From: Dehalococcoidia bacterium
GTDB taxonomy: Bacteria > Chloroflexota > Dehalococcoidia > Lucifugimonadales > UBA3495
Direction: 5' to 3'
DNA length: 64,000 bases
Assembly: GCA_963668585.1 (NCBI GenBank)
Contig: OY764869.1
Span: 201,880 to 265,879, forward strand
Shown here one piece after another: positions 5,348 to 22,426 of this stretch (position 1 is its first letter; each line of letters opens with the position of its first letter). A model generated the notes under the pieces. The model saw only the letters and a list, made by a program, of their open reading frames with translations. It was not told the origin of the DNA and did no database searches. Position numbers and translations under genes: made by a program.

Positions 5348-6139
5348 TTACCGGGCGCCGGCCGACCGCCCTCCGTCCACCATGTACACTCCGCCGGTGC
5401 AGAAACTGCTGTCATCGCTGGAGAGAAACAGCATCATCCGCGCCACCTCCTCGGGATTGCCGTAGCGACCCAACGGGATGCGCGACGCGGTGGCTCGCCT
5501 GGTCTGCTCCACCGTTATGTCCGAATCGTCCAACGCCGCGACGCGCTGCTCCTCGATGGAACGCATCATGCGAGTTTCGATGGGCGCCGGGTTGACGGTG
5601 TTGACCCGGATGCCCTGGGACGCCCCCTCCATGGCGGCAGTGCGCATCAGTCCGATGACGGCGTGCTTGCTGGTGGTGTACGCCGACATGTCGGGGCCGG
5701 CCCCGATGCCGGCGGTGGACGACGTGATGACGATGCTGCCACCGCCGCGCTCCCGCATCACCGGCACCACGTACTTGATGCCCAGCCAGACACCGCGCAC
5801 GTTCACGGCCATCACCCGGTCAAAGACGTCGATGGGATAGTCCGGTATGGACGACAACTGCCCCTCGATGCCAGCGTTGGCGAGGTACACGTCCACGCCG
5901 CCCCAGCGGGCCACGGCCGCGTTGACGTAGGCCTGGGACTGGTCGGGTTGGGTGACGTCGGCCACGGCATAGCTGGCCCTGTCCTCGCCGATGGACTGCA
6001 CGGTTTCCTGCAGGGCGGCTTCGTCGAGGTCAACCAGCGCGACGCGCGCGCCTTCGTCGGCGAACAGGTGGGCCGCGGCTCGACCGATTCCTCCGGTGGC
6101 GCCGGTAATGAGGGCTACTTTTCCTTCGAGGCGGGCCAT
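5348..6139 (-). CDS. SDR family oxidoreductase
   Basis: Cofactor motif TGATGGIG and catalytic YTTSK. Confidence 0.9.
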   Translation of the reverse strand: MARLEGKVALITGATGGIGRAAAHLFADEGARVALVDLDEAALQETVQSIGEDRASYAVADVTQPDQSQAYVNAAVARWGGVDVYLANAGIEGQLSSIPDYPIDVFDRVMAVNVRGVWLGIKYVVPVMRERGGGSIVITSSTAGIGAGPDMSAYTTSKHAVIGLMRTAAMEGASQGIRVNTVNPAPIETRMMRSIEEQRVAALDDSDITVEQTRRATASRIPLGRYGNPEEVARMMLFLSSDDSSFCTGGVYMVDGGRSAGAR

Positions 6140-13263: not shown

Positions 13264-14070
13264 ATGCCAACCGAACCCATCCCACAGCTCGATCCGGAAC
13301 TGTTGGTTGCGCGCATCATCGCGGAGTTGCAGGCCAACCCGGAAGCGCAGCCGCTGCTGCTGCGCGCCATGCTCACCAACGAGTTCCTGGGGATGCCGGC
13401 CCGGCTCGACCGTATCGAAAAGGACGTGGCCGAGTTGAAAGTGGATGTGGCACAGTTGAAGGCCGACATGGTGGAAGTCAAGGCCGATATCGCTGTACTG
13501 AAGACTGACGTGGCTGTACTGAAGACTGACGTGGCTGTACTGAAGACTGACGTGGCCGTACTGAAGACTGACGTGGCCGTACTGAAGACTGACGTGGCCG
13601 TACTGAAGACTGACGTGGCTCAACTAAAGGGCGATGTGGGCTATCTCAGAGGCAGTGATCTGGAAATCCGCCTGCACCGGAATCTCAGGTCCATCGTCAG
13701 CCAGCGGCTGGACCTGATTCGACCGCGCATCATGCAGAGCCAATTGCAGGAGCCAATCAACGAATTTGCCGACGAGATCCACGACGCATACCGCGAGGGA
13801 CGCATCAGCAGCGATCAGTATCGACGGCTTGAACGAACCGACTTCATCATGCGCGCCCAGCAGTTGGACAACCATTCTTTGATCCTGGTGGCCGTTGAAG
13901 CATCTGCCACCGTGGACGCGCACGATATTGAACGCGCCCGCGAATCTGCTGACGCGCTGGCAACCGTATTCGGGACCGACACCATCGCGGTTGTGTCGGG
14001 CTATCGCATTGACCCCAGAGACCTGACCAAGGCTGAAGACGTGAGTGTGCGGTATGTGCAAGCCAACTGA
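13264..14070 (+). CDS. coiled-coil heptad-repeat protein with a restriction-endonuclease-fold-like C-terminal domain (uncharacterised)
   Basis: About 10 heptads (DVAELKV...AVLKTDV x6...AQLKGDV). The C-terminal half has the pattern TDFIM...LILVAVEASATVDAHDIERA...AVVSGYRI. Confidence 0.75.
   Translation: MPTEPIPQLDPELLVARIIAELQANPEAQPLLLRAMLTNEFLGMPARLDRIEKDVAELKVDVAQLKADMVEVKADIAVLKTDVAVLKTDVAVLKTDVAVLKTDVAVLKTDVAVLKTDVAQLKGDVGYLRGSDLEIRLHRNLRSIVSQRLDLIRPRIMQSQLQEPINEFADEIHDAYREGRISSDQYRRLERTDFIMRAQQLDNHSLILVAVEASATVDAHDIERARESADALATVFGTDTIAVVSGYRIDPRDLTKAEDVSVRYVQAN
13492..13617 (+). repeat. six tandem 21-bp in-frame repeats
   Basis: gctgtactgaagactgacgtg occurs three times, then gccgtactgaagactgacgtg three times. 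The only difference is one synonymous site. Degenerate copies flank the array across 13429-13638. Confidence 0.95.
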
Positions 14071-14091
14071 ATGGCCTCATCCACAGGCGTT

Positions 14092-15276
14092 TCAGTAAGC
14101 CGCCTGCAGCACCTCAATAATTGGGCCAGCGTCAACCACAGGCTTGGGGTTGGTGCTGAGGCTGCGGTCCTGCAGCGTGGCGGTGGCGATGTATTCCAGA
14201 CCGTCCTCGGGGACGCCCACCTCCCGCAGCGTGCGCGGCAGTTCCAGGTCTCGGCACAGTTCGTCCACCGCGTCGGCGGCGGCCAGGCCAGCCTCCTCGT
14301 CGGTCATGGTGGATCTGGCTACGCCGATAGCCTCGGCGATCAGACGCTGGCGGTCGGCGCAGGCGTCCAGGTTGTAGCGCATGGTGTGCGGCAGCAGGAT
14401 GGCGTTGGCCTCGCCGTGAGGGACGTCGTACAACCCGCCCACATGGTGGCACGTCGCGGTGTTGAGTCCCAGGCCGCCAAAGGACGCCAGCGACGCCATG
14501 GCGCACGCGGTCTTGGTGGTGAGCAGCGTGTCGATATCCCCATCCTTGCAGCGGGGCAGGTTATCGAAGAGCAGGCGGATGGCATGGAGCGCCATTCCGT
14601 CGCCGATGGGGTTGCGACCGGTGGAATAGACGGTCTCGATGGCGATGCGCAACTGCCCGATGGCTGTGGACACCAGTATGCGCAGGGGCGTGGTGGCCAG
14701 CGCCTGACCGTCAATGACGACGGTGCGGTGGGTCACACCATCGCCGGCAATGCTCAGCTTGCGGCCCTGCTCATGGTCGGTGATTCCGCCGCCGCCGCGA
14801 CTGAACTCGGCGCAGCCCATGGTCGTGGGAACGCTGACGATGGGTACCTTGGGCGACGGTGTCGGCGGCACGATGATCTTGTCGGGAGGCTCGAAGAAGA
14901 TCGCGTAATCGCGGATATCCCCACCCTCCCCCAGCAGGACCGCGATGGCCTTGGTGGTGTCGTGGGTGCTGCCGCCGCCGACGCTGATAAAGACGTCGGG
15001 CTGCGTCTCCCTGGCCATGGCGGCGCCGGCCTCGACGGTTTCGACGGGCGAGTGGGGCGCGACGCCGGAGTAGGTGCCGACGTATCGCGAACCCAGCGCT
15101 TCCTGCACCCTGGGCACCACGTCGCACGCTCTGAGGATGGTCGGCCCACAGGTGATCATGGCGCGGCCACCGCCCAGGCTGTCCACCACAGCCGGCAGGT
15201 CGTTGATGGCGGCCTCCGAACAGACAATGTCCTGGTGCAGGGGGTCGTAGCGATAGTGCAGGGCGTTGGCAGGCAT
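14092..15276 (-). CDS. iron-containing alcohol dehydrogenase family (maleylacetate reductase-like)
   Basis: GGGSTHDTTKA motif and metal-binding histidine region HHVGGLYDVPHGEANAILLPH. Confidence 0.85.
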   Translation of the reverse strand: MPANALHYRYDPLHQDIVCSEAAINDLPAVVDSLGGGRAMITCGPTILRACDVVPRVQEALGSRYVGTYSGVAPHSPVETVEAGAAMARETQPDVFISVGGGSTHDTTKAIAVLLGEGGDIRDYAIFFEPPDKIIVPPTPSPKVPIVSVPTTMGCAEFSRGGGGITDHEQGRKLSIAGDGVTHRTVVIDGQALATTPLRILVSTAIGQLRIAIETVYSTGRNPIGDGMALHAIRLLFDNLPRCKDGDIDTLLTTKTACAMASLASFGGLGLNTATCHHVGGLYDVPHGEANAILLPHTMRYNLDACADRQRLIAEAIGVARSTMTDEEAGLAAADAVDELCRDLELPRTLREVGVPEDGLEYIATATLQDRSLSTNPKPVVDAGPIIEVLQAAY

Positions 15277-15335
15277 GGTTCTATCTCCAGGTTGTGAGGC
15301 AGGCAGGGATAACGACCTGATCGTGCTCGGCGAAA

Positions 15336-15764
15336 CTATATCACCATCAGGTGGCTTTCATTAGCTCCGTGAACGGCGTCCAGAGGGATGCGGGTATCCA
15401 GCGTTACCAGCCGGACGTTGTGTTTAACGGCCAAGGCCAAAAGGTACACGTCGGTCAGTTGACGGTAACCCGACAACCGCCGGTCGTCAACCAGCGATTC
15501 GTCAAGCAGGCTGGCGTCGTCGGGGATGAATTGGTGGTGATCCGTGGACGTGGCGGTCCGCAACAGATCCGTAGCCACGATCACGCTCAACGGACGCGGA
15601 TATTGGGGTTGGGACAAGATGCGTACGCAGCCGTTTTGCGTTAGCGGGCAGGATGCCCATCCGAGTGCTAAATTTGCCGCGAACCAAACAGACACTGCCG
15701 CGTGAGCGGCGTGGTGTCGGTCCAGGAGAGCTAGCAGGCAGTTTACGTCATACAGAGCCCTCAA
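15336..15764 (-). CDS. vapC: type II toxin VapC (PIN-domain ribonuclease)
   Basis: Acidic PIN residues in YDVN, LTDVYLLALA and LVTLD. The TTG start lies 3 nt after the antitoxin stop. Confidence 0.8.
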   Translation of the reverse strand: MRALYDVNCLLALLDRHHAAHAAVSVWFAANLALGWASCPLTQNGCVRILSQPQYPRPLSVIVATDLLRTATSTDHHQFIPDDASLLDESLVDDRRLSGYRQLTDVYLLALAVKHNVRLVTLDTRIPLDAVHGANESHLMVI

Positions 15765-15767
15765 GGT

Positions 15768-15971
15768 TCAGATACCCAACTCTTCCCGCCACTTGTTTAC
15801 CATCTCATTGGTAACCACGTAATCGCCGGCCGGCAGCGGTTTGAAACCGTACTGCTCCAGATCAACCGCCTGGACAGCGCTGACTTCCACGTCAACCACC
15901 TGGCCTTCCGGCAGTCCGAGCGGTGCGTCCAATTCGATGGTCCGACCCTTTACAATGCCTCTGCGTTTCAT
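15768..15971 (-). CDS. putative antitoxin partner of VapC
   Basis: 67-aa ORF translationally coupled upstream of vapC. It contains a swapped-hairpin-like segment IVKGRTIELDAPLGLPEGQVVDVEV. Confidence 0.55.
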   Translation of the reverse strand: MKRRGIVKGRTIELDAPLGLPEGQVVDVEVSAVQAVDLEQYGFKPLPAGDYVVTNEMVNKWREELGI

Positions 15972-16040
15972 GTCATTTCCCTTGGATGGCGGGACGATAC
16001 CGTGTTGCTGGCGCGGCGTGTCGCCTTGGCTTTGCCGGCG

Positions 16041-16559
16041 CTACTGATTCAGGCCGCGCTGCATGCCGCGCAGGTATCCGGCCTGCCCGCCGTGCTGGTT
16101 GACCTCCCAGATGAGCAGGCGGAACATATCGGCCACGGCCATGGCCTCGCCGCGCCGGTTGGTCATCTGGGTGCTGACGAGGGAATCGTCGTCGTGCTGG
16201 CTCAGGAACTCCAGCAGGTTGTCGCGTGCCGCGTCGGCGTACTCCATGACCACGGCCTTGTCCGGGCATTTCCAGTTGGTCAGATCCTCTACGGTGTAGC
16301 CGAAACCGACGTTCATGGGTTCCGGCGCGAACCCGAGGCGCTCGGCCCATCCCTGTTCGTAAAGCTGCGGTTCCTGTTTGGCAAGGGATTGGACCCACAT
16401 ATCCAGGGCGCGCCCGTAGTGCCAGACGATGAACCCGATGGAATGGCACTGATCATTGGGCGTGAACTCGATCTCCTCCTGGGTCAGCCCGTCCACGTAC
16501 CGGAGCAGCCAGTCCCAGTTGTTGTTGAAGGATTCCCTGATGAATTCTTGCAGCGCCAT
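16041..16559 (-). CDS. DinB family protein
   Basis: Four-helix DinB pattern with conserved histidines (HSIGFIVWHYGRALD ... NQHGGQAGYLRG). Confidence 0.75.
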   Translation of the reverse strand: MALQEFIRESFNNNWDWLLRYVDGLTQEEIEFTPNDQCHSIGFIVWHYGRALDMWVQSLAKQEPQLYEQGWAERLGFAPEPMNVGFGYTVEDLTNWKCPDKAVVMEYADAARDNLLEFLSQHDDDSLVSTQMTNRRGEAMAVADMFRLLIWEVNQHGGQAGYLRGMQRGLNQ

Positions 16560-16576
16560 GGTTGCCTCCCGGTGTA

Positions 16577-17551
16577 TCAGGTGGTCCAGATGGGGGGTCG
16601 CTTGTCCAGGAAGGCGGTGATTCCCTCATGGGCGTCGTCTTCCAGGAGGTTATCCACCATGACCCTGCCCGCGAACTGGTAGGCGGAAGGGCGATCCATT
16701 TCAATTTGTTTGTAGAACGCCGCTTTGCCCAGCGCCAGGGTCTGGGCGCTGGCGGAGGCAATCTGGCGGGCCAGATCCATGACCTGCCGATCAAGATCGT
16801 CCGCCGGAGCGATACGGCTGATGAGACCGAATTCCAGGGCTTCCTGCGCCGAAATGGGCCGACCGGTGAGCAGCATCTCCATCGCCTTCTTGGGCATCAC
16901 GGAGCGCGCGACCGCGACGCCCGGCGTGGTGCAGAACAGCCCGATCTGCACGCCCGGCGTGGCGAAAGCGGCGGTGTCGGCAGCCACGGCGATGTCGCAG
17001 GTGGCGACGAGTTGGCAGCCGGCGGCGGTGGCCAGACCCTGAACCTGCGCGATGACCGGCTTGGGCAACAGCCGGATGCCCTCCATGACGCGGGTGCAGG
17101 CGTCAAAGACGGCGGTGTAGTCCTCGGCATCCCCGTTGACCAGTTCGTTGAGGTCGTGTCCTGAACTGAACACCGGCCCCTCGGAGCGAATGACTACCAC
17201 GCGGGCTTCCGGGTCGTTCGCAATCCAGTCCAGCCACTCTTCCAACGCCGCCAGGGTGCGCGATGACAACACGTTGCGCTTTTTCGGATTGGTCAGCGTG
17301 AGGATAGCGATGCCGTCTTGCGCCCAGTTGTAGTCAACCGTCAGCGGCTCAATTTCCTCCGGCGTGGCCGGACGAACCTGCGCCCCGTCCACGTAGGCAA
17401 CGGCAATAGTGTTGCCAGCCGGGGAGAAAAACTCCACCATGTAAGCATCCGCGCCGGGGAAAATGTGCACGACAGTGCCTATTTTGCCTGCCTTCAGTTC
17501 GTACTCCGGCAGGTCTGATGTAAGTACGATTGGATCATGCTCTTCAATCAT
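16577..17551 (-). CDS. enoyl-CoA hydratase/isomerase (crotonase) with an N-terminal DUF4926-like extension
   Basis: Residues 1-69 (DPIVLTSDLPEYELKAGKIGTVVHIF...AYMVEF) resemble DUF4926 as I recall it. Residues 70-324 are a crotonase fold (ILTLTNPKKRNVL, SEGPVFSSGHDL, GLATAAGCQLV). Confidence 0.8.
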   Translation of the reverse strand: MIEEHDPIVLTSDLPEYELKAGKIGTVVHIFPGADAYMVEFFSPAGNTIAVAYVDGAQVRPATPEEIEPLTVDYNWAQDGIAILTLTNPKKRNVLSSRTLAALEEWLDWIANDPEARVVVIRSEGPVFSSGHDLNELVNGDAEDYTAVFDACTRVMEGIRLLPKPVIAQVQGLATAAGCQLVATCDIAVAADTAAFATPGVQIGLFCTTPGVAVARSVMPKKAMEMLLTGRPISAQEALEFGLISRIAPADDLDRQVMDLARQIASASAQTLALGKAAFYKQIEMDRPSAYQFAGRVMVDNLLEDDAHEGITAFLDKRPPIWTT

Positions 17552-17892
17552 ATTCGCCTCCCACGAGGATAAGCGCTGACGAGTCGAGGGAACTCGCTGC
17601 CCAGGTCAATTATCCAGACTGTTCTCAGCAACGGGTTGCGCCCATCCGGGGTGTTCAGAGTACCATCAACGGTGAAAACCGGTCCGTGTGGAGTTTCGGT
17701 AACGGAAGTGACTTCATGACTTGCCCCATGAGTCCGTAGGGCTTCTGCCAAGATCCACCACCGCTCACGATTAAAACCGAATTGGAGCAGGAAATCGGCC
17801 TTGCCGCCACCATCAGCATGATCGGGCACAAGCAGATAGTCCCTGGCTTTTTCCACTTGGACCCAGGCGTTTTCGGCGTTGGGGAGCTTCAC
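17548..17892 (-). CDS. DUF6883-like protein
   Basis: VKLPNAENAWVQVEKARDYLL...GGGKADFLLQFGF...RTVWIID...PRLVSAYP. The GTG start lies 2 nt after the ACAD stop, and the stop overlaps the downstream start (ATGA). The ORF-track extension to 18279 overlaps the ACAD gene. Confidence 0.6.
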   Translation of the reverse strand: MKLPNAENAWVQVEKARDYLLVPDHADGGGKADFLLQFGFNRERWWILAEALRTHGASHEVTSVTETPHGPVFTVDGTLNTPDGRNPLLRTVWIIDLGSEFPRLVSAYPRGRRI

Positions 17893-17894
17893 TC

Positions 17895-19067
17895 CTACCC
17901 GCGCGGCAGGCCCAACCCCCGGCTGGCGATGATGTTGCGCTGCACTTCGCTGGTGCCGGCGGCAATGGTATGAGAAAACGCCCGCATCCAATGCTCCTGC
18001 ATATCGGCTTCCAGGGGCGTCCACTTGTCGTCGCGCAGGCCGCCGTACATGCCCATCACTTCCAGGCAGGACGCGGTGGTGCGCTGCACGGTTTCGCTGC
18101 CGAACACCTTGGACATTGACGCTTCCTTGTTGGGCACCAGGCCTTCGCCCTGCATCCAGGCCACGTTGTAGGCGATGAGGCGCGCCACTTCGCACTCGAT
18201 GTAGCGGTCGGCCAGCACGTTGCGCACCCAGGGTTCCTGGCTGAGCGGCTTGCCGTTGCGCGAGATTCCGTCGGCCCACTGGCGGGTATCGTCCAGATGC
18301 CGGCGCGACGCGGCCGAGTAGTCGATGCCGGAACGCTCGAAGTCCAGCAGCGTCACGGCCACGTACCAGCCACGGTTTTCCTCGCCGACGATGTTGCGGG
18401 CCGGCACTCGCACGTTGTCGAACATGATCTGGTTGAATTCGTGGCGTCCGCCCATGTTGATGATGGGGCGAACCTCAATGCCCGGCGTCTTCATGTCCAC
18501 CAGGAAGAAACTGATGCCCCGGTGCTTGGGGGCGTCGGTGTCGGTGCGGGTGAGCAGCATGATCCAGTCGCCGCGGTGTCCCATGGAAGTCCAGATCTTG
18601 CTGCCGTTGATGACGAATTCGTCGCCGTCGCGGATGGCGCGGGTGCTGAGGGACGCAAGGTCGGAACCGGACTCGGGCTCACTGTAGCCCTGGCACCACT
18701 GCACCTCGCCCTTGGCGACGGGGGGCAGATGCTCGGCCTTCTGCTCGTCGGTGCCGTGAATCATGAGGGTTGCGCCCATCATGCGGACGCCGAAGTTGTC
18801 GCGACCGGGAGCGCGGTGGTAGGTCATCGCTTCATTGAAGATGGCGGTGCGCACCGGAGATGCTTTTTGTCCGCCGTACTCTTCCGGCCAGTGCATCGTC
18901 AGCCAGCCTCGGTCGGCCAGTTTGCGGCGCACATCCAGCGTGCGTTCCCAGTTATCTTCACCGACGCCACGTTCGCCCAACTCCCATTCGGGAACATACT
19001 CGTCGGAGATGAACTGCTGGAGGTCGCTTTGGAAGGTAGCGTCCTCGGTACTGAACTGGAACTCCAT
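17895..19067 (-). CDS. acyl-CoA dehydrogenase
   Basis: 390 aa with typical ACAD segments: WCQGYSEPESGSD, and a C-terminal IAAGTSEVQRNIIA. Confidence 0.9.
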   Translation of the reverse strand: MEFQFSTEDATFQSDLQQFISDEYVPEWELGERGVGEDNWERTLDVRRKLADRGWLTMHWPEEYGGQKASPVRTAIFNEAMTYHRAPGRDNFGVRMMGATLMIHGTDEQKAEHLPPVAKGEVQWCQGYSEPESGSDLASLSTRAIRDGDEFVINGSKIWTSMGHRGDWIMLLTRTDTDAPKHRGISFFLVDMKTPGIEVRPIINMGGRHEFNQIMFDNVRVPARNIVGEENRGWYVAVTLLDFERSGIDYSAASRRHLDDTRQWADGISRNGKPLSQEPWVRNVLADRYIECEVARLIAYNVAWMQGEGLVPNKEASMSKVFGSETVQRTTASCLEVMGMYGGLRDDKWTPLEADMQEHWMRAFSHTIAAGTSEVQRNIIASRGLGLPRG

Positions 19068-19168
19068 GATGCTATTCTCCTGGTGGCGTGGGTCGCATGG
19101 TCGGCGGCATCGGCCGACGGTGAACCGGATTGACGTGCAAAATTTGCGCTATCTTACCACGGGCTGCG

Positions 19169-20020
19169 TCACATTTGGCTGTAGCCGCTGCCGGGCCCCC
19201 GGGTGTCGTCGACGCCCCAGCCGCGGCCTTCCGTGATCCAGCCAAACTCCAGCAGAATCTGCTGGCTGTAGCACACCCGCCCCGTTACCTTGTCCGCAGG
19301 TTCGGAAGCCAGGAGCAGGGTGGCTTTGGCGAGCAGTTCGGGTGGCTCGCCACGCGGGTCGTCCATGCCCTCCACCAGGTGATGGAAAACGGTGCCGGGA
19401 GTGGGCACCACCAGGGAGGGAGCCACCGCCGAAACGGAGATCCCATACTCGTGCACCTCCTGGGCCAGACCCTGGGAGAAGCGCTCCAACGCCGCTTTCT
19501 CGGCTCCGTAGCATGTGCCGTTGTTGGTCGGCGTGGTGTACGGTCCGCGACCGGGACCGACGGCCGAACCGGAGGATATGTTCACGATGCTGCCCGACCT
19601 GCGCTCGATCATGTCCGACAGAACCAACTGGCTGAGGATGAAAGGAGCGTGGAAATTGACCGCCCATGATCGCATCCAGCGGTTGATGGGAAAGTCCTTG
19701 ATGGGCAGGTAGTAGGTGAGGGCGGCGTTATTGACCAGCACGTCCACCGGCCCGTAGATGCGTCGCGCTTCCGACACCAGCATCTCGCACTCGTCGGGCA
19801 GGGAGATGTTGGCGGCCACGGCAGTTGCCTCGCCGCCGGCTTCCTTGATGTCCGCGATGGTCTTGGCGAGCGAACCTTCAAGCGGGTGATCGCCTTCGTT
19901 GACGGTGCGGGCGGCGCAGACTACGCGGGCCCCTTCGGCGGCGAACAGGCGACTGATTTCGGCGCCGATGCCACGACTGGCGCCGGTGACGATGGCGGTT
20001 TTTCCTTCTAGTTTGGGCAT
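19169..20020 (-). CDS. SDR family oxidoreductase
   Basis: TGASRGIG, NNAA and YGAEK motifs. I prefer the ATG at 20020 (MPKLEGK) over the ORF-track start at 20101. Confidence 0.85.
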   Translation of the reverse strand: MPKLEGKTAIVTGASRGIGAEISRLFAAEGARVVCAARTVNEGDHPLEGSLAKTIADIKEAGGEATAVAANISLPDECEMLVSEARRIYGPVDVLVNNAALTYYLPIKDFPINRWMRSWAVNFHAPFILSQLVLSDMIERRSGSIVNISSGSAVGPGRGPYTTPTNNGTCYGAEKAALERFSQGLAQEVHEYGISVSAVAPSLVVPTPGTVFHHLVEGMDDPRGEPPELLAKATLLLASEPADKVTGRVCYSQQILLEFGWITEGRGWGVDDTRGPGSGYSQM

Positions 20021-20202
20021 TTCCGGTTGTCCTTTTGCTGATTTGCGGCCGTCATCGCCTGTGGTTCCGTTACGCAATGGCGCCGACCAGGTGAACGGCA
20101 ACCCCTTGCGTCAGGCGTCAAGATGAGGAGAATGAAAGACAATTGTAACCCGTGCGAGGGCGTGTCCATGGCGCGAGCCTAATAATGGCGCCTGCCGATC
20201 GG

Positions 20203-20700
20203 TCAGGTCTGACCGTTGCTCGAGACCCCATTACCGTTGGGCGGCGGTTCGGTGAAGGGTTGACCCGCGCGCTCTGCGGCGTCGCGGCGCTCAAGCCAGG
20301 ATTCCCAGGCCTGTTGAGTTTCCTCAATGCCCTCCATCCGGCCCGTCGCGCGACCTTCCTCACGGCCTTCTGCTCGGCCTTCCCGACGACCTTCTTCGCG
20401 GTAAAAACGTTTGCGAAATTCTGCCAGTACCAAGGATGTCCCCTCCACCAATCCGATTGTTATCGGGAGCGCGACGCCGGCGGTCAGAGCCGCGGAAACA
20501 ATGCTGATTATAACAATTTCCGGCCAGGCGAGCGGCGGATTTTCCGCTGTCACGAACCGGGAGTAGGCCATCAACCCGGCAAGCACAGCCCAGATGATGT
20601 AAAACGCAAGGAGTATCCGCCCGCTGTGGCGCGCCAGTACGTCAAAAAGACTGCGCCTGACGTCCCGGTTGGAGCCGTTGCTCGCCGCCGCGTCAGCCAT
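20203..20700 (-). CDS. membrane protein with a charged EGR-repeat C-terminal tail (uncharacterised)
   Basis: Two or three hydrophobic helices, then EGRREGRAEGREEGRATGRMEG. The start overlaps the panB stop by 8 nt. Confidence 0.5.
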   Translation of the reverse strand: MADAAASNGSNRDVRRSLFDVLARHSGRILLAFYIIWAVLAGLMAYSRFVTAENPPLAWPEIVIISIVSAALTAGVALPITIGLVEGTSLVLAEFRKRFYREEGRREGRAEGREEGRATGRMEGIEETQQAWESWLERRDAAERAGQPFTEPPPNGNGVSSNGQT

Positions 20701-21526
20701 CCACCAGGTCGGACAGCACCGCTGCGTTCATGGTGAAACTTTCCGACTCAGCGGGGAAGGAGCCATCGCGGACATCGTCGGCGTACTGGCGGAAGGCGGA
20801 GGTTATGTCATCCGCCAATGTCGCGTAGCGACGGGCGTGCCTGGGCAGAAAATCCGAAAACAGGCCGAGCATATCGTGGAACACCTGCACCTGCCCATCG
20901 CAATCGGGGCCGGCGCCGATACCGATGGTCGGGATGGTCATTCGCTCGGTGATCACCCTCGCCAACGGGCTTGGGACGCATTCCAGCACCACCGAGTAGG
21001 CGCCGGCATCCTGCAACGCCAGGGCGTCATCCACAAGGCGTCGAGCGGTGGCGCGGGTGCGTCCCTGCACGCGGTAGCCGCCCAGGGCGTTGACCGATTG
21101 CGGCGTGAGGCCGATGTGTCCCATGACCGGCACGCCGGCGTCCACCATGCGTCGCACCGTTTCGGCGATGGCCACGCCGCCTTCCAGTTTCACCGTGTGC
21201 GCGCCGCCCTCCTGCATCAGCCGGCCGGCGTTGCGCATGGCTTCGTTGGAATCGACCTGGTAGGCCATGAAGGGCAGGTCGGCGACGACCAGCGCGTTGG
21301 ATGCGCCGCGCGTGACCATGCGGGTATGGCGCACCATGTCGTCCATGGTCACCGGAATGGTGGAATCGTATCCCAGCACCACCATCCCCATGCTGTCGCC
21401 CACCAGTATGATGGGTATGCCGGCGGCGTCGGCGATGCGGGCGGCGGTGTAATCGTAGGCGGTGACCATGGGGATTTTCTCCCCGTTCCGCTTCATGTCC
21501 GCCAGTTTTCTGATCGTAGTCGCCAT
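20693..21526 (-). CDS. panB: 3-methyl-2-oxobutanoate hydroxymethyltransferase
   Basis: MVTAYDYTAARIADAAGIPIILVGDSMGMVVLGY and KLEGG motifs; 277 aa. Confidence 0.9.
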   Translation of the reverse strand: MATTIRKLADMKRNGEKIPMVTAYDYTAARIADAAGIPIILVGDSMGMVVLGYDSTIPVTMDDMVRHTRMVTRGASNALVVADLPFMAYQVDSNEAMRNAGRLMQEGGAHTVKLEGGVAIAETVRRMVDAGVPVMGHIGLTPQSVNALGGYRVQGRTRATARRLVDDALALQDAGAYSVVLECVPSPLARVITERMTIPTIGIGAGPDCDGQVQVFHDMLGLFSDFLPRHARRYATLADDITSAFRQYADDVRDGSFPAESESFTMNAAVLSDLVDG

Positions 21527-21541
21527 AGTAGCGCGATTGTA

Positions 21542-22426
21542 TCAGCCTTGCCCCTGTGCTGTCCGCCTCAATCGGGCCAGGTCGTCCTCGGCGACGCCCT
21601 TCGCCCGCGCCAGCGGAAGGGATGCCATTGTCAACTGGCGGTACATAGTCTCAAGCTCGGGAGCGCGCTCCGACAACGCTGCCAGGTGTGCCGAGATGGT
21701 GGCGGCGTCACCGCGCACGGCCGGCCCGGTTACCGCCGCCAGCGGTCCCACTGCGGCGATGGCCTCGATGGTGGCGCGGGCCAGCGGCACGGCGGCCCTC
21801 ACCCCGTCCTCCTCCGTGTATCCCATGCGCGTCCACAGGCTCACCGCTGCTTCCAGCAGAGTTCCCACGTAGCCGCACGACAATACCGCGCTGGCGTGGT
21901 ACAGCGGACGCAACTCATCGGTGATGGCAATAGCCCGTCCATCCAAACGCTCCGCGAGGGACGGCAGATAGTCTGCCAGCCACCCGGTGGCGGACAACGC
22001 GAACGTTACGCCGGACAGACGACGGGCGGCTTCGGCCGGTTCGCTGAGTGCGGCGAAGGTCTGGAACGGATGCATCGCGCCCACGGCTGCCCCGGCGTCC
22101 GCCGCTGCGGACAGGAGTTCGGTGGACGCCGCGCCGCAACAGTGCGCCACCCCCTGCCCGGAGCGCCAACTGACCTCGCCGGCAACTTGCGATATTGCGC
22201 TGTCGGGCGTGGTGATGAACACCAGGTCGCAGGTATCCGCGACTTCCTGCGCCGTGTCAACCGCGACGCACCCGTCGATTCGCCCGGCGATCCACTCCGC
22301 GCTGGCACGGGTGCGGCTGGCGGCCGCGACCACGTCGCAGCCCACCGAGTCCAGCGCCAGCGCCAGGCCGCGCCCCAGCGTGCCGGCCCCGACGAACCCG
22401 ATTCGGACGTTATCCGGTGTTGCCAT
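21542..22426 (-). CDS. Rossmann-fold protein, DUF2520-like (possible ketopantoate reductase substitute)
   Basis: N-terminal IGFVGAGTLG and position directly upstream of panB. Confidence 0.65.
   Translation of the reverse strand: MATPDNVRIGFVGAGTLGRGLALALDSVGCDVVAAASRTRASAEWIAGRIDGCVAVDTAQEVADTCDLVFITTPDSAISQVAGEVSWRSGQGVAHCCGAASTELLSAAADAGAAVGAMHPFQTFAALSEPAEAARRLSGVTFALSATGWLADYLPSLAERLDGRAIAITDELRPLYHASAVLSCGYVGTLLEAAVSLWTRMGYTEEDGVRAAVPLARATIEAIAAVGPLAAVTGPAVRGDAATISAHLAALSERAPELETMYRQLTMASLPLARAKGVAEDDLARLRRTAQGQG

Follow-up and report, generated by a model that had tools for sequence, protein, structure and literature searches.

The closest described relatives of the locus reported in this study are gene pairs of the DUF6883 and DUF4926 families. 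DUF6883 was reclassified as 'BECR-Tox3', with a conserved downstream DUF4926 as the putative immunity protein, and is often found as the C-terminal domain of Phage_Mu_F proteins (bioRxiv 10.64898/2026.08.28.747851). Both families have so far been assigned to toxin and immunity from sequence and context only. The CdiA-CT toxin of Klebsiella pneumoniae 342 (Kp342) is a BECR-fold tRNase that has a Lys-Tyr-Thr triad and the active site residues K157, Y160, H170, R252 and T255 (PMC9086364). In this study, we analyzed a 64-kb window, that is, the whole stretch taken from contig OY764869.1 of a marine Chloroflexota (SAR202-type) bacterium, in which a DUF6883 gene is followed by an open reading frame (ORF) that joins a DUF4926 domain in frame to an ECHDC3-like crotonase. 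The pair probably represents a toxin-immunity cassette, similar to a type II toxin-antitoxin (TA) system, which lies between an acyl-CoA dehydrogenase (ACAD) gene and the crotonase gene and whose predicted immunity domain has been welded to the metabolic enzyme.

Canonical pairs were found in three unrelated genomes (Pirellulales, Chloroflexi and one other; L081-L086), where a gene for a free DUF4926 protein of 75-81 aa lies downstream of the DUF6883 gene with a spacing of -4 to +2 nt. Together with the 2026 preprint, they confirm a statement of a first, sequence-only reading of the window, namely that the two families usually occur as an adjacent two-gene module of TA-like character. In a Chloroflexi metagenome-assembled genome (MAG), the free pair (L085:1-5342) immediately follows an MmeI-type methyltransferase/restriction gene, with a GmrSD gene two genes further on, and thus the canonical pair is also found in a defence-island context. 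Neither PADLOC nor NCBIfam has a model that fits DUF6883 or DUF4926.

The cassette and its predicted proteins

The locus lies on the minus strand, and coordinates are positions in the window. The gene order given by the sequence-only reading, from ACAD through a 114-aa ORF and a 324-aa ORF to DinB, was borne out when all coordinates were re-read from the sequence. The ACAD gene (17895..19067; Pfam Acyl-CoA_dh_N/M/1) forms the left flank of the cassette and ends with the TAG at 17897-17895. Two nucleotides further on, the GTG at 17892 starts the DUF6883 gene (17548..17892), which leaves the cassette without an upstream intergenic region of its own. The TGA stop of this gene and the ATG of the fusion ORF (16577..17551) share the ATGA at 17548..17551, an overlap that reads as translational coupling of the two ORFs. 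The DUF6883 and DUF4926 genes are thus adjacent, co-oriented and coupled at their junction. Among related loci, the spacing from ACAD stop to toxin start is also 2 nt in 17 of 24, and in the 24 loci the next ATG or GTG either overlaps the toxin stop or is no more than 0-4 nt away from it. In L022 and L030 (about 5661-6017) the usual toxin stop is gone, and the ORF overlaps the fusion ORF by 17 nt instead of the usual 0-4. No second copy of DUF6883 or DUF4926 is present in the 64-kb window. A promoter and terminator scan of 13900-21600 gave no minus-strand site within the cassette and a sole promoter-like match at 21565-21536 (-), upstream of panB; the counts did not exceed those of shuffled sequence, and hence this is weak evidence.

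The 114-aa protein, which the sequence-only reading had named DUF6883, was assigned to this family (PF21814) by Pfam with 109.9 bits (E 9.7e-32, cutoff 27) over profile positions 1-109 of 110. It is a stand-alone ORF product starting with the family-conserved MKLPN, and no large delivery protein carries the toxin at its C-terminus. A sequence search of the PDB returned nothing, even at an E-value of 10. The AlphaFold2 model built from 67 homologs (pLDDT 95.4) displays three helices (H13-18, H29-36 and H45-58) followed by a four-stranded sheet (E61-67, E70-78, E88-94 and E103-109), which is the arrangement of BECR RNase toxins, with N-terminal helices on a four-stranded antiparallel sheet. Foldseek gave strong PDB matches only to the four toxin chains of 6CP9 (TM-score 0.67-0.72, probability 1.0), with CdiA-CT Kp342 as the top match at a TM-score of 0.70 and RelE, HigB and YoeB weaker. 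DUF6883 models as a BECR-fold RNase, with the CdiA-CT Kp342 tRNase as its nearest relative.

Residues K15, Y19, L21, K31, W93 and R103 are invariant across the 67 homologs, with Ser or Thr at position 106. The protein in the window keeps all family invariants (K15, Y19, K31, W93 and R103) and possesses S106. The series K15, Y19, K31 and R103-x-x-S106 appears to parallel K157, Y160, H170, R252 and T255 of the Kp342 toxin in order and with similar spacing, and the Lys, Tyr and Ser/Thr positions are intact in 24 of 24 loci. DUF6883 is predicted to be an active RNase toxin.

The sequence-only reading had also named the first 69 aa of the 324-aa ORF as DUF4926. Pfam agrees for residues 1-70 alone (63.5 bits, E 1.2e-17, cutoff 29.1), and in the full protein PF16277 was found at residues 4-60 (59.2 bits, E 2.5e-16), covering profile positions 1-56 of 57. 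The E-values of the domain assignments lie well outside the range of chance matches. The domain, residues 1-67 (17351..17551), is presumed to be the immunity or antitoxin module. As word-indexed searching for homologs of the 69-aa domain yielded no more than 2 proteins, an exhaustive profile search of representatives was used instead. It defined a family of 3483 representative clusters, the best 150 of which span 62-209 aa and thus denote small stand-alone or tandem proteins. Free DUF4926 proteins of 75-81 aa end with '...RP....D[IV]THAR.....'. The fused domain is kept to about residue 67, lacks some ten tail residues relative to free homologs of 76-77 aa, and joins the crotonase 2-4 residues past the normal Met of the enzyme. 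It is therefore not the free small protein of the canonical pair but the N-terminal part of a 324-aa protein. In the AlphaFold2 model (pLDDT 94.5) it folds into a five-stranded SH3/KOW-like barrel, for which the best Foldseek matches are NusG KOW and SH3 domains (TM-score 0.6-0.69), with no specific immunity protein among the matches. Neither Pfam nor Foldseek gave a match to helix-turn-helix, ribbon-helix-helix or AbrB domains, and the domain sequence found nothing in the PDB, even at an E-value of 10.

The junction and linker (residues 68-79, 17315..17350) lead into the crotonase core (residues 80-324, 16577..17314). Pfam places ECH_1 at residues 78-323 (E 8.8e-56), and the NCBIfam enoyl-CoA hydratase model NF006008 matches residues 77-323 with 349.8 bits (cutoff 313) over profile positions 17-264 of 266. 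The first 16 profile positions are not covered by this match, so that the crotonase is without an N-terminus of its own. Human ECHDC3 (PDB 2VX2) was aligned end to end with fusion residues 79-323, or residues 10-254 of the crotonase part (E 1.4e-82). An exact-sequence look-up of the 324-aa protein returned no record. The catalytic pair of textbook crotonases is represented by Glu144 and Glu164 of the rat enoyl-CoA hydratase. In the motifs AAGCQLVATCD and FATPGVQIGL of the fusion, Gln and Gly occupy the two catalytic Glu positions. The reaction of this crotonase is uncertain, and 'beta-oxidation' is an assumption. The label of a beta-oxidation operon, given by the sequence-only reading, is loose: the enzyme is ECHDC3-like, and its neighbours are a short-chain dehydrogenase/reductase (SDR), ACAD, a DinB/MST-like protein and an Fe-dependent alcohol dehydrogenase (Fe-ADH).

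Distribution, probable exchange and selection of the cassette

One genome per species was scanned, and a total of 46 loci (L001-L046) were found with the gene order SDR, ACAD, a variable position, crotonase, DinB, a second variable position and Fe-ADH, or 47 with the window. All come from Dehalococcoidia/SAR202-type MAGs, many of which consist of one chromosomal contig and several of which were obtained from sponges. The in-frame fusion of DUF4926 to the crotonase is present in 29 of the 47 loci, including long-read complete chromosomes. A protein search with the 324-aa sequence also gave fusions that match it over the full length and share its three Pfam domains, with identities as low as about 70%, and fusions of at least 320 aa form 103 clusters at 90% identity. 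Unfused crotonases of 255-268 aa are 83-86% identical over the enzyme part. The alignment of orthologous operons, which the sequence-only reading had proposed as a check, thus reveals a fusion conserved in 28 other species-level genomes and in the 103 protein clusters.

The ACAD/crotonase junction is found in several states. In state A (L033, L036 and L038-L045) it is empty, and the ACAD stop lies a few nucleotides ahead of the crotonase ATG. State B (L034 and L037) has the pair unfused, with a free 77-aa DUF4926 and a crotonase that possesses its own start 15-70 nt downstream; a deletion of ~50-100 nt in such a locus would yield the fusion. State C is the arrangement of the window and is found in 17 loci, with 4 more carrying extra DNA between ACAD and toxin. 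A complete DUF6883 and free DUF4926 pair stands upstream of the fusion in state D (L003, L019 and L028). In state E (L002, L004, L012, L016 and L046) the fusion is kept and the toxin is replaced by other genes. The locus L031 was considered as a pre-fusion state and rejected, as its DUF4926 is a frameshifted copy of the free type without DUF6883.

The cassette differs from its surroundings in composition. GC content at third codon positions is 0.56 in the toxin gene and 0.62 in the fused domain versus 0.80-0.86 around them (0.84 for the flanks of the toxin gene, 0.82-0.86 for ACAD, crotonase and DinB), and the resulting seam inside the fusion ORF is seen on average across all loci. Toxins and fused domains form the families {window, L001, L006}, {L005, L007, L008, L010, L013} and {L020-L023, L030}. 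The types of the two parts co-vary (Mantel rho 0.44, p 2e-4, with state D loci left out), and neither correlates with the divergence of ACAD (rho about 0), which is 93-97% identical among the 46 loci. Nucleotide distances of the fused DUF4926 correlate with those of crotonase codons 1-50 (rho 0.57-0.61) versus a rho of -0.16 to 0.11 for codons 51-255, and codons 1-50 are almost twice as divergent as the rest. These first ~50 codons (17195..17344) share the history of the cassette and have a breakpoint zone at their 3' end. The cassette with its fused domain and the first ~50 crotonase codons form a block of foreign composition, whose history is separate from that of the rest of the operon.

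Synonymous divergence (dS) displays the same partition. Between L005 and L010 it is 0.07-0.11 in the cassette versus 0.47-0.96 in the flanks, and for the pairs L005/L010, L020/L021 and L007/L013 together the values are 0.02-0.11 and 0.3-1.0. Sliding-window analysis shows low-divergence tracts over the cassette. Phylogenetic trees were constructed by neighbor-joining on partly saturated sites. In the flank tree (ACAD and DinB), fused and empty loci are interspersed, and in the tree of crotonase codons 6-50 the never-fused alleles of states A and B form a group of their own. Together with the low cassette dS, this makes an exchange of alleles likelier than a single vertical fusion. One ancient vertical fusion followed by repeated clean losses was judged less likely as the sole history. 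Cassette alleles appear to move between lineages by homologous recombination, with the 3' end of ACAD and the conserved crotonase core as the left and right arms. New toxin types come with their own free DUF4926 and are placed upstream of the resident fused copy, as in state D. The fused arrangement seems to have been retained by dozens of related species, which exchange it as a block.

Four unfused loci (L026, L027, L029 and L032) nest among the fused alleles on the tree of codons 6-50 and look like secondary un-fusions. In L029 (6278-6500), the fused domain has decayed by a premature stop and a frameshift, and a change of codon 70 from CTG to ATG restores the crotonase start. An in-frame deletion in L032 (5850-6040) leaves 'MIRKLDPTAITED', 13 DUF4926 residues, as the enzyme N-terminus, with a DUF6883 fragment upstream. 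The DUF4926 domain is replaced by an AlbA_2 insert in L026 and by a PaREP1-like insert in L027.

The junction holds many other genes. Schlafen AlbA_2+HATPase_c_4 genes are found at L004:4143-5978, L046:4238-5998 and L026:4187-5956, and GmrSD/HEC-05 genes (PADLOC E 8e-211) at L012:4240-5988, L011:3854-5635 and L024:3891-5636. A PaREP1-like two-gene pair of small proteins is present at L002:5250-5998 and in L016 and L027, a DUF429 protein at L017:4759-5637, and a DDE_5 transposase of an insertion sequence at L018:4802-5557. Defence genes of various kinds have thus settled at the ACAD/crotonase junction, a general hotspot located inside an operon. Neither an integrase nor a tRNA was seen at the junction in the loci examined.

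Selection was estimated by pairwise Nei-Gojobori (NG86) ratios of nonsynonymous to synonymous divergence (dN/dS) over 69-114 codons, with pairs that are non-independent and in many cases saturated at synonymous sites. The median dN/dS is 0.036 for ACAD, 0.075 for the crotonase, 0.072 for DinB, 0.21 for the fused DUF4926 (138 usable pairs) and 0.26 for DUF6883 (79 usable pairs). Within cassette families, values of 0.04-0.24 were obtained for most pairs in both parts. The DUF4926 near-invariants E4, L10, L19, G22, G25, V28, E40, F41, G46 and R60 are kept in 100-103 of the 103 fused clusters. Both parts of the cassette are under purifying selection. A dN/dS of ~0.2 together with the retained invariants indicates that the fused domain is not a neutral leader. 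Conservation of the fusion and purifying selection thus favor the first alternative of the sequence-only reading, a captured module of which the second half became covalently tied to the enzyme.

Explanations of the fused cassette

We propose that the cassette was inserted exactly between ACAD and crotonase of a conserved SAR202/Dehalococcoidia operon. DUF6883 would be a small BECR-fold RNase toxin, translated by coupling to the ACAD stop. DUF4926 would have lost its last ~10 codons and stop, with the spacer and the crotonase start codon also gone, and would have become the N-terminal domain of the enzyme. The crotonase would then be produced only as a fusion, and each subunit would carry one toxin-binding domain that sequesters the co-translated toxin. 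The fused barrel may bind and neutralise DUF6883, in which case the crotonase oligomer would thereby sequester it. The immunity function could presumably not be lost without losing the start codon of the enzyme, and the fusion may stabilize the cassette because a loss of the immunity domain would also remove this start. State C loci have a constrained toxin with an intact Lys/Tyr/Ser-Thr motif and no other DUF4926 beside the toxin gene.

Several findings weigh against this proposal. The correspondence of the active sites is based on motif order and not on residue-level superposition. R103 is replaced by W, A or V in 10 of 19 simple fused loci, a hint of attenuation there: R103W is found in L005, L007, L008, L010 and L013, and R103A/V in L020-L023 and L030 (toxin ORFs at about 5659-5997). 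The free-type tail '..D[IV]THAR..', which might matter for neutralisation, is missing from the fused domain, and the co-variation of toxin and fused domain could be due to linkage alone. The limits of the NG86 ratios and of the neighbor-joining trees given above also apply. Moreover, the fused domain is similarly constrained (dN/dS 0.1-0.3) in the five state E loci without adjacent DUF6883. As the constraint persists without the adjacent toxin, the selected role may not be the neutralisation of a cis-encoded toxin. This constraint and the R103W/A/V families keep two other readings in play, orphan immunity and a domesticated subunit, which are weighed below.

A wider and more speculative version, to which we give only a modest chance, regards the fusion as an adaptive anchoring that makes the immunity domain undeletable. 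The enzyme core would serve as a permanent homology arm for swapping toxin/immunity types and other defence genes between species, and the multimeric crotonase would titrate the predicted toxin as a TA switch coupled to metabolic state, with R103W or R103A/V lineages possibly having turned the toxin into a domesticated accessory subunit. If this were true, release of the toxin would be tied to the expression or turnover of a metabolic enzyme.

The fused domain might mainly guard against external DUF6883 toxins, such as those of phage MuF proteins or incoming cassettes, with a needed enzyme guaranteeing its expression. We consider this unlikely as the principal explanation, though it is compatible with the toxin-immunity cassette and not exclusive of it. 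It would conform to the frequent location of DUF6883 at the C-terminus of Phage_Mu_F proteins (bioRxiv 10.64898/2026.08.28.747851) and to the position of the fusion at a defence-gene hotspot. The fused domain also stays constrained after the toxin has been replaced by GmrSD, AlbA_2 or PaREP1-like genes, and it persists downstream of newly inserted pairs in state D. However, immunity proteins are usually type-specific (review PMC9086364), no phage with a matching toxin was identified, and the loss of the toxin at those loci may simply be recent.

Alternatively, DUF4926 could be a frozen accident, a functionless tag kept only for its start codon and ribosome-binding context. That many relatives have a working enzyme with no such domain (states A and B and the four un-fused loci), and that the domain persists in state E without adjacent DUF6883, would be expected from such a tag. 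A dN/dS of ~0.2 rather than ~1, toxin-less pairs included, and the DUF4926 invariants kept in nearly all clusters would not. At least 17 loci also encode a constrained toxin with intact Lys/Tyr/Ser-Thr positions and have no other immunity gene beside it. A frozen accident is thus quite improbable.

The second alternative of the sequence-only reading was a decayed start, where the crotonase is mainly made separately by internal initiation at CTG70 and the long ORF is a by-product. The features on which it relied are all present in the window: the crotonase has no start of its own, the CTG of L70 is at 17344-17342, and a GGAGGA at 17360-17355, a Shine-Dalgarno (SD)-like hexamer encoding part of P64-E65-E66, lies 10 nt upstream. 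In unfused orthologs the start codon is found where L70 stands in the fusion or 2-4 codons ahead of it, and CTG70 is equivalent to their Met1; the unfused homolog P0109 (L029) has its ATG precisely at codon 70 and starts with MTVDYN. Six of the 29 fused loci have TTG at codon 70 and an SD-like motif 8 nt upstream. As a conserved mechanism, though, internal initiation fails in comparison among relatives. Codon 70 in the 29 fused loci is CTG in 9, TTG in 8, CCG/CCC in 8, GAC/GAA in 3 and CGG in 1, and is thus a non-start codon in 12 of 29; of the 103 clusters, 63 have L at residue 70 and 39 have P (20), D (11) or R (8). Codons 58-91 contain no canonical start in frame in four loci (window, L011, L014 and L025), the window lacking ATG, GTG and TTG alike. 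The nucleotides of the hexamer are not conserved, with GGACGA, GAACGA and others in its place, and E66, encoded within it, aligns with an acidic position (D/E) that free DUF4926 proteins conserve. Variation of codon 70 and of the hexamer shows that internal initiation is not a conserved feature, and purifying selection on the upstream 67 codons, with the DUF4926 invariants kept, would be needless for a mere leader. We therefore regard the decayed start as very unlikely, while initiation at CTG may still occur at a low level in the genome of the window.

Domestication is the next explanation, in which the toxin-immunity interface serves as a docking module and an altered DUF6883 is a regulatory or accessory subunit of the crotonase. 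R103 is substituted in two of the three fused-cassette families, by W in one and by A or V in the other, yet the toxin dN/dS there is still 0.09-0.19, and in these lineages the toxin may be attenuated or repurposed. Translational coupling would lead to stoichiometric co-production, and a precedent is known in CdiA-CT EC536 (BECR-type), which forms a complex with the metabolic enzyme CysK (PMC9086364). The toxin of the window, on the other hand, retains R103 and every other invariant residue, and the Lys/Tyr/Ser-Thr positions are intact in all 24 loci. The cassette is dispensable and often replaced or lost, which is unexpected for an enzyme subunit, and domestication has only a slim chance of being the general explanation.

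A sequencing, assembly or gene-calling artefact, in favor of which nothing was found, is refuted by the same open frame in 28 independent assemblies, a good many of which are chromosomes in a single contig, as well as in 103 metagenomic protein clusters from several sources. The sequence-only reading had held that relatives with a clean crotonase start would expose such an artefact; these relatives do exist, but they carry never-fused alleles or un-fusions, and an artefact is not shown by them.

If the toxin-immunity cassette is read correctly, the fusion provides a natural and conserved handle on the DUF6883/DUF4926 pair, in the form of a soluble and easily purified enzyme for pull-downs and structures of complexes. 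A single syntenic site displays all stages, from empty to inserted and unfused, fused, fused with a newer stacked pair, and independent un-fusions. The series shows how a selfish or defence cassette can enter a housekeeping gene and then be lost, at a defence/TA hotspot whose right homology arm is the coding sequence of a metabolic enzyme. The fusion protein is currently annotated simply as 'enoyl-CoA hydratase', and the separate history of the first ~50 crotonase codons matters for phylogenies and annotation of SAR202 and sponge symbionts.

Surrounding operon and comparison with known systems

The genes around the cassette are largely syntenic in the 46 relatives. Upstream of ACAD, a conserved SDR-family oxidoreductase gene (19169..20101, minus strand; Pfam adh_short E 1.3e-44) is syntenic in L001-L046. 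It is preceded by a 165-aa ORF without a Pfam match at 20203-20700 (-) and, next upstream, by panB (ketopantoate hydroxymethyltransferase, E 3e-119) at 20693-21526 (-). Downstream of the fusion ORF, the conserved and syntenic DinB_2/MST-like gene (16041..16559, minus strand; Pfam DinB_2 E 1.8e-16) is followed by a 67-aa ORF and a PIN-domain ORF, a VapBC-like pair (15336..15971, minus strand; Pfam PIN E 7e-7), and by the conserved and syntenic distal Fe-ADH gene (14092..15276, minus strand; Pfam Fe-ADH and ADH_Fe_C). Among the 46 relatives, some have the 67-aa/PIN pair in the DinB/Fe-ADH gap, in diverged or duplicated form in places, and others lack it, and hence the gap denotes a second variable insertion spot in the operon. 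Beyond these genes, a 268-aa ORF at 13264-14070 (+) contains a 21-nt tandem repeat in 6.1 copies (98% match) at 13492-13620, which encodes (TDVAVLK)n heptads; Pfam gave only weak coiled-coil-type matches, all below cutoff.

A phrase search of the literature found no description of a fusion of DUF4926, or of another antitoxin or immunity domain, to a metabolic enzyme, and a search combining SAR202, sponge and TA returned general papers only. The crotonase part is comparable to human ECHDC3 (2VX2) and NF006008 enzymes, which unlike the fusion have no DUF4926 domain; the unfused bacterial orthologs are 255-268 aa long.

Defence-gene hotspots between core genes are similar to the ACAD/crotonase junction in the variety of defence genes they hold, but here the site is inside an operon, between translationally coupled genes. 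Polymorphic toxin loci of the contact-dependent growth inhibition (CDI) and Rhs systems resemble the cassette in that types are exchanged by recombination between conserved flanks, and their orphan immunity genes in that an older immunity copy stays behind, downstream of the site where a new pair has been inserted, as in state D. In contrast to these loci, no delivery protein is present here, the 'orphan' is fixed as part of the enzyme ORF, and the homology arm is the coding sequence of the enzyme itself.

The CdiA-CT(Kp342)/CdiI complex (PDB 6CP9) is the nearest in structure. The modelled DUF6883 is similar to the toxin in its alpha-helical N-terminal half and four-stranded sheet (TM-score about 0.70) and in the order of Lys, Tyr, a basic residue and Arg-x-x-Thr/Ser. 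Identity between the two is only about 15%, however, and DUF6883 is a stand-alone protein of 114 aa, whereas the Kp342 toxin forms the tip of a secreted CdiA. No similarity to DUF4926 was detected for CdiI(Kp342), which is all-beta and larger.

Type II TA systems of the RelE/ParE kind also have a small BECR-fold toxin, an adjacent small partner that neutralises it, and chromosomal loci that are patchy and exchanged, and weak Foldseek matches link DUF6883 to RelE, HigB and YoeB. They differ from the cassette, in which the toxin gene comes first and the partner is fused to a stable enzyme instead of being a labile protein. As DUF4926 is an SH3/KOW-like barrel without a recognisable DNA-binding domain, autoregulation is unlikely, unlike in classical type II antitoxins.

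The canonical DUF6883/DUF4926 pair has in common with the window both Pfam families, the toxin-first order, and an overlapping or abutting stop-start junction. Its DUF4926 is free and 75-81 aa long, whereas here the domain is N-terminal in a 324-aa enzyme and lacks the last ~10 residues, and the cassette lies inside a metabolic operon with no room for its own promoter. By sequence and gene order, the locus is a member of the DUF6883/DUF4926 family that departs from it in having a fused instead of a free immunity partner. By analogy, it would work like a toxin-first type II TA system or a polymorphic-toxin immunity pair with a predicted BECR RNase.

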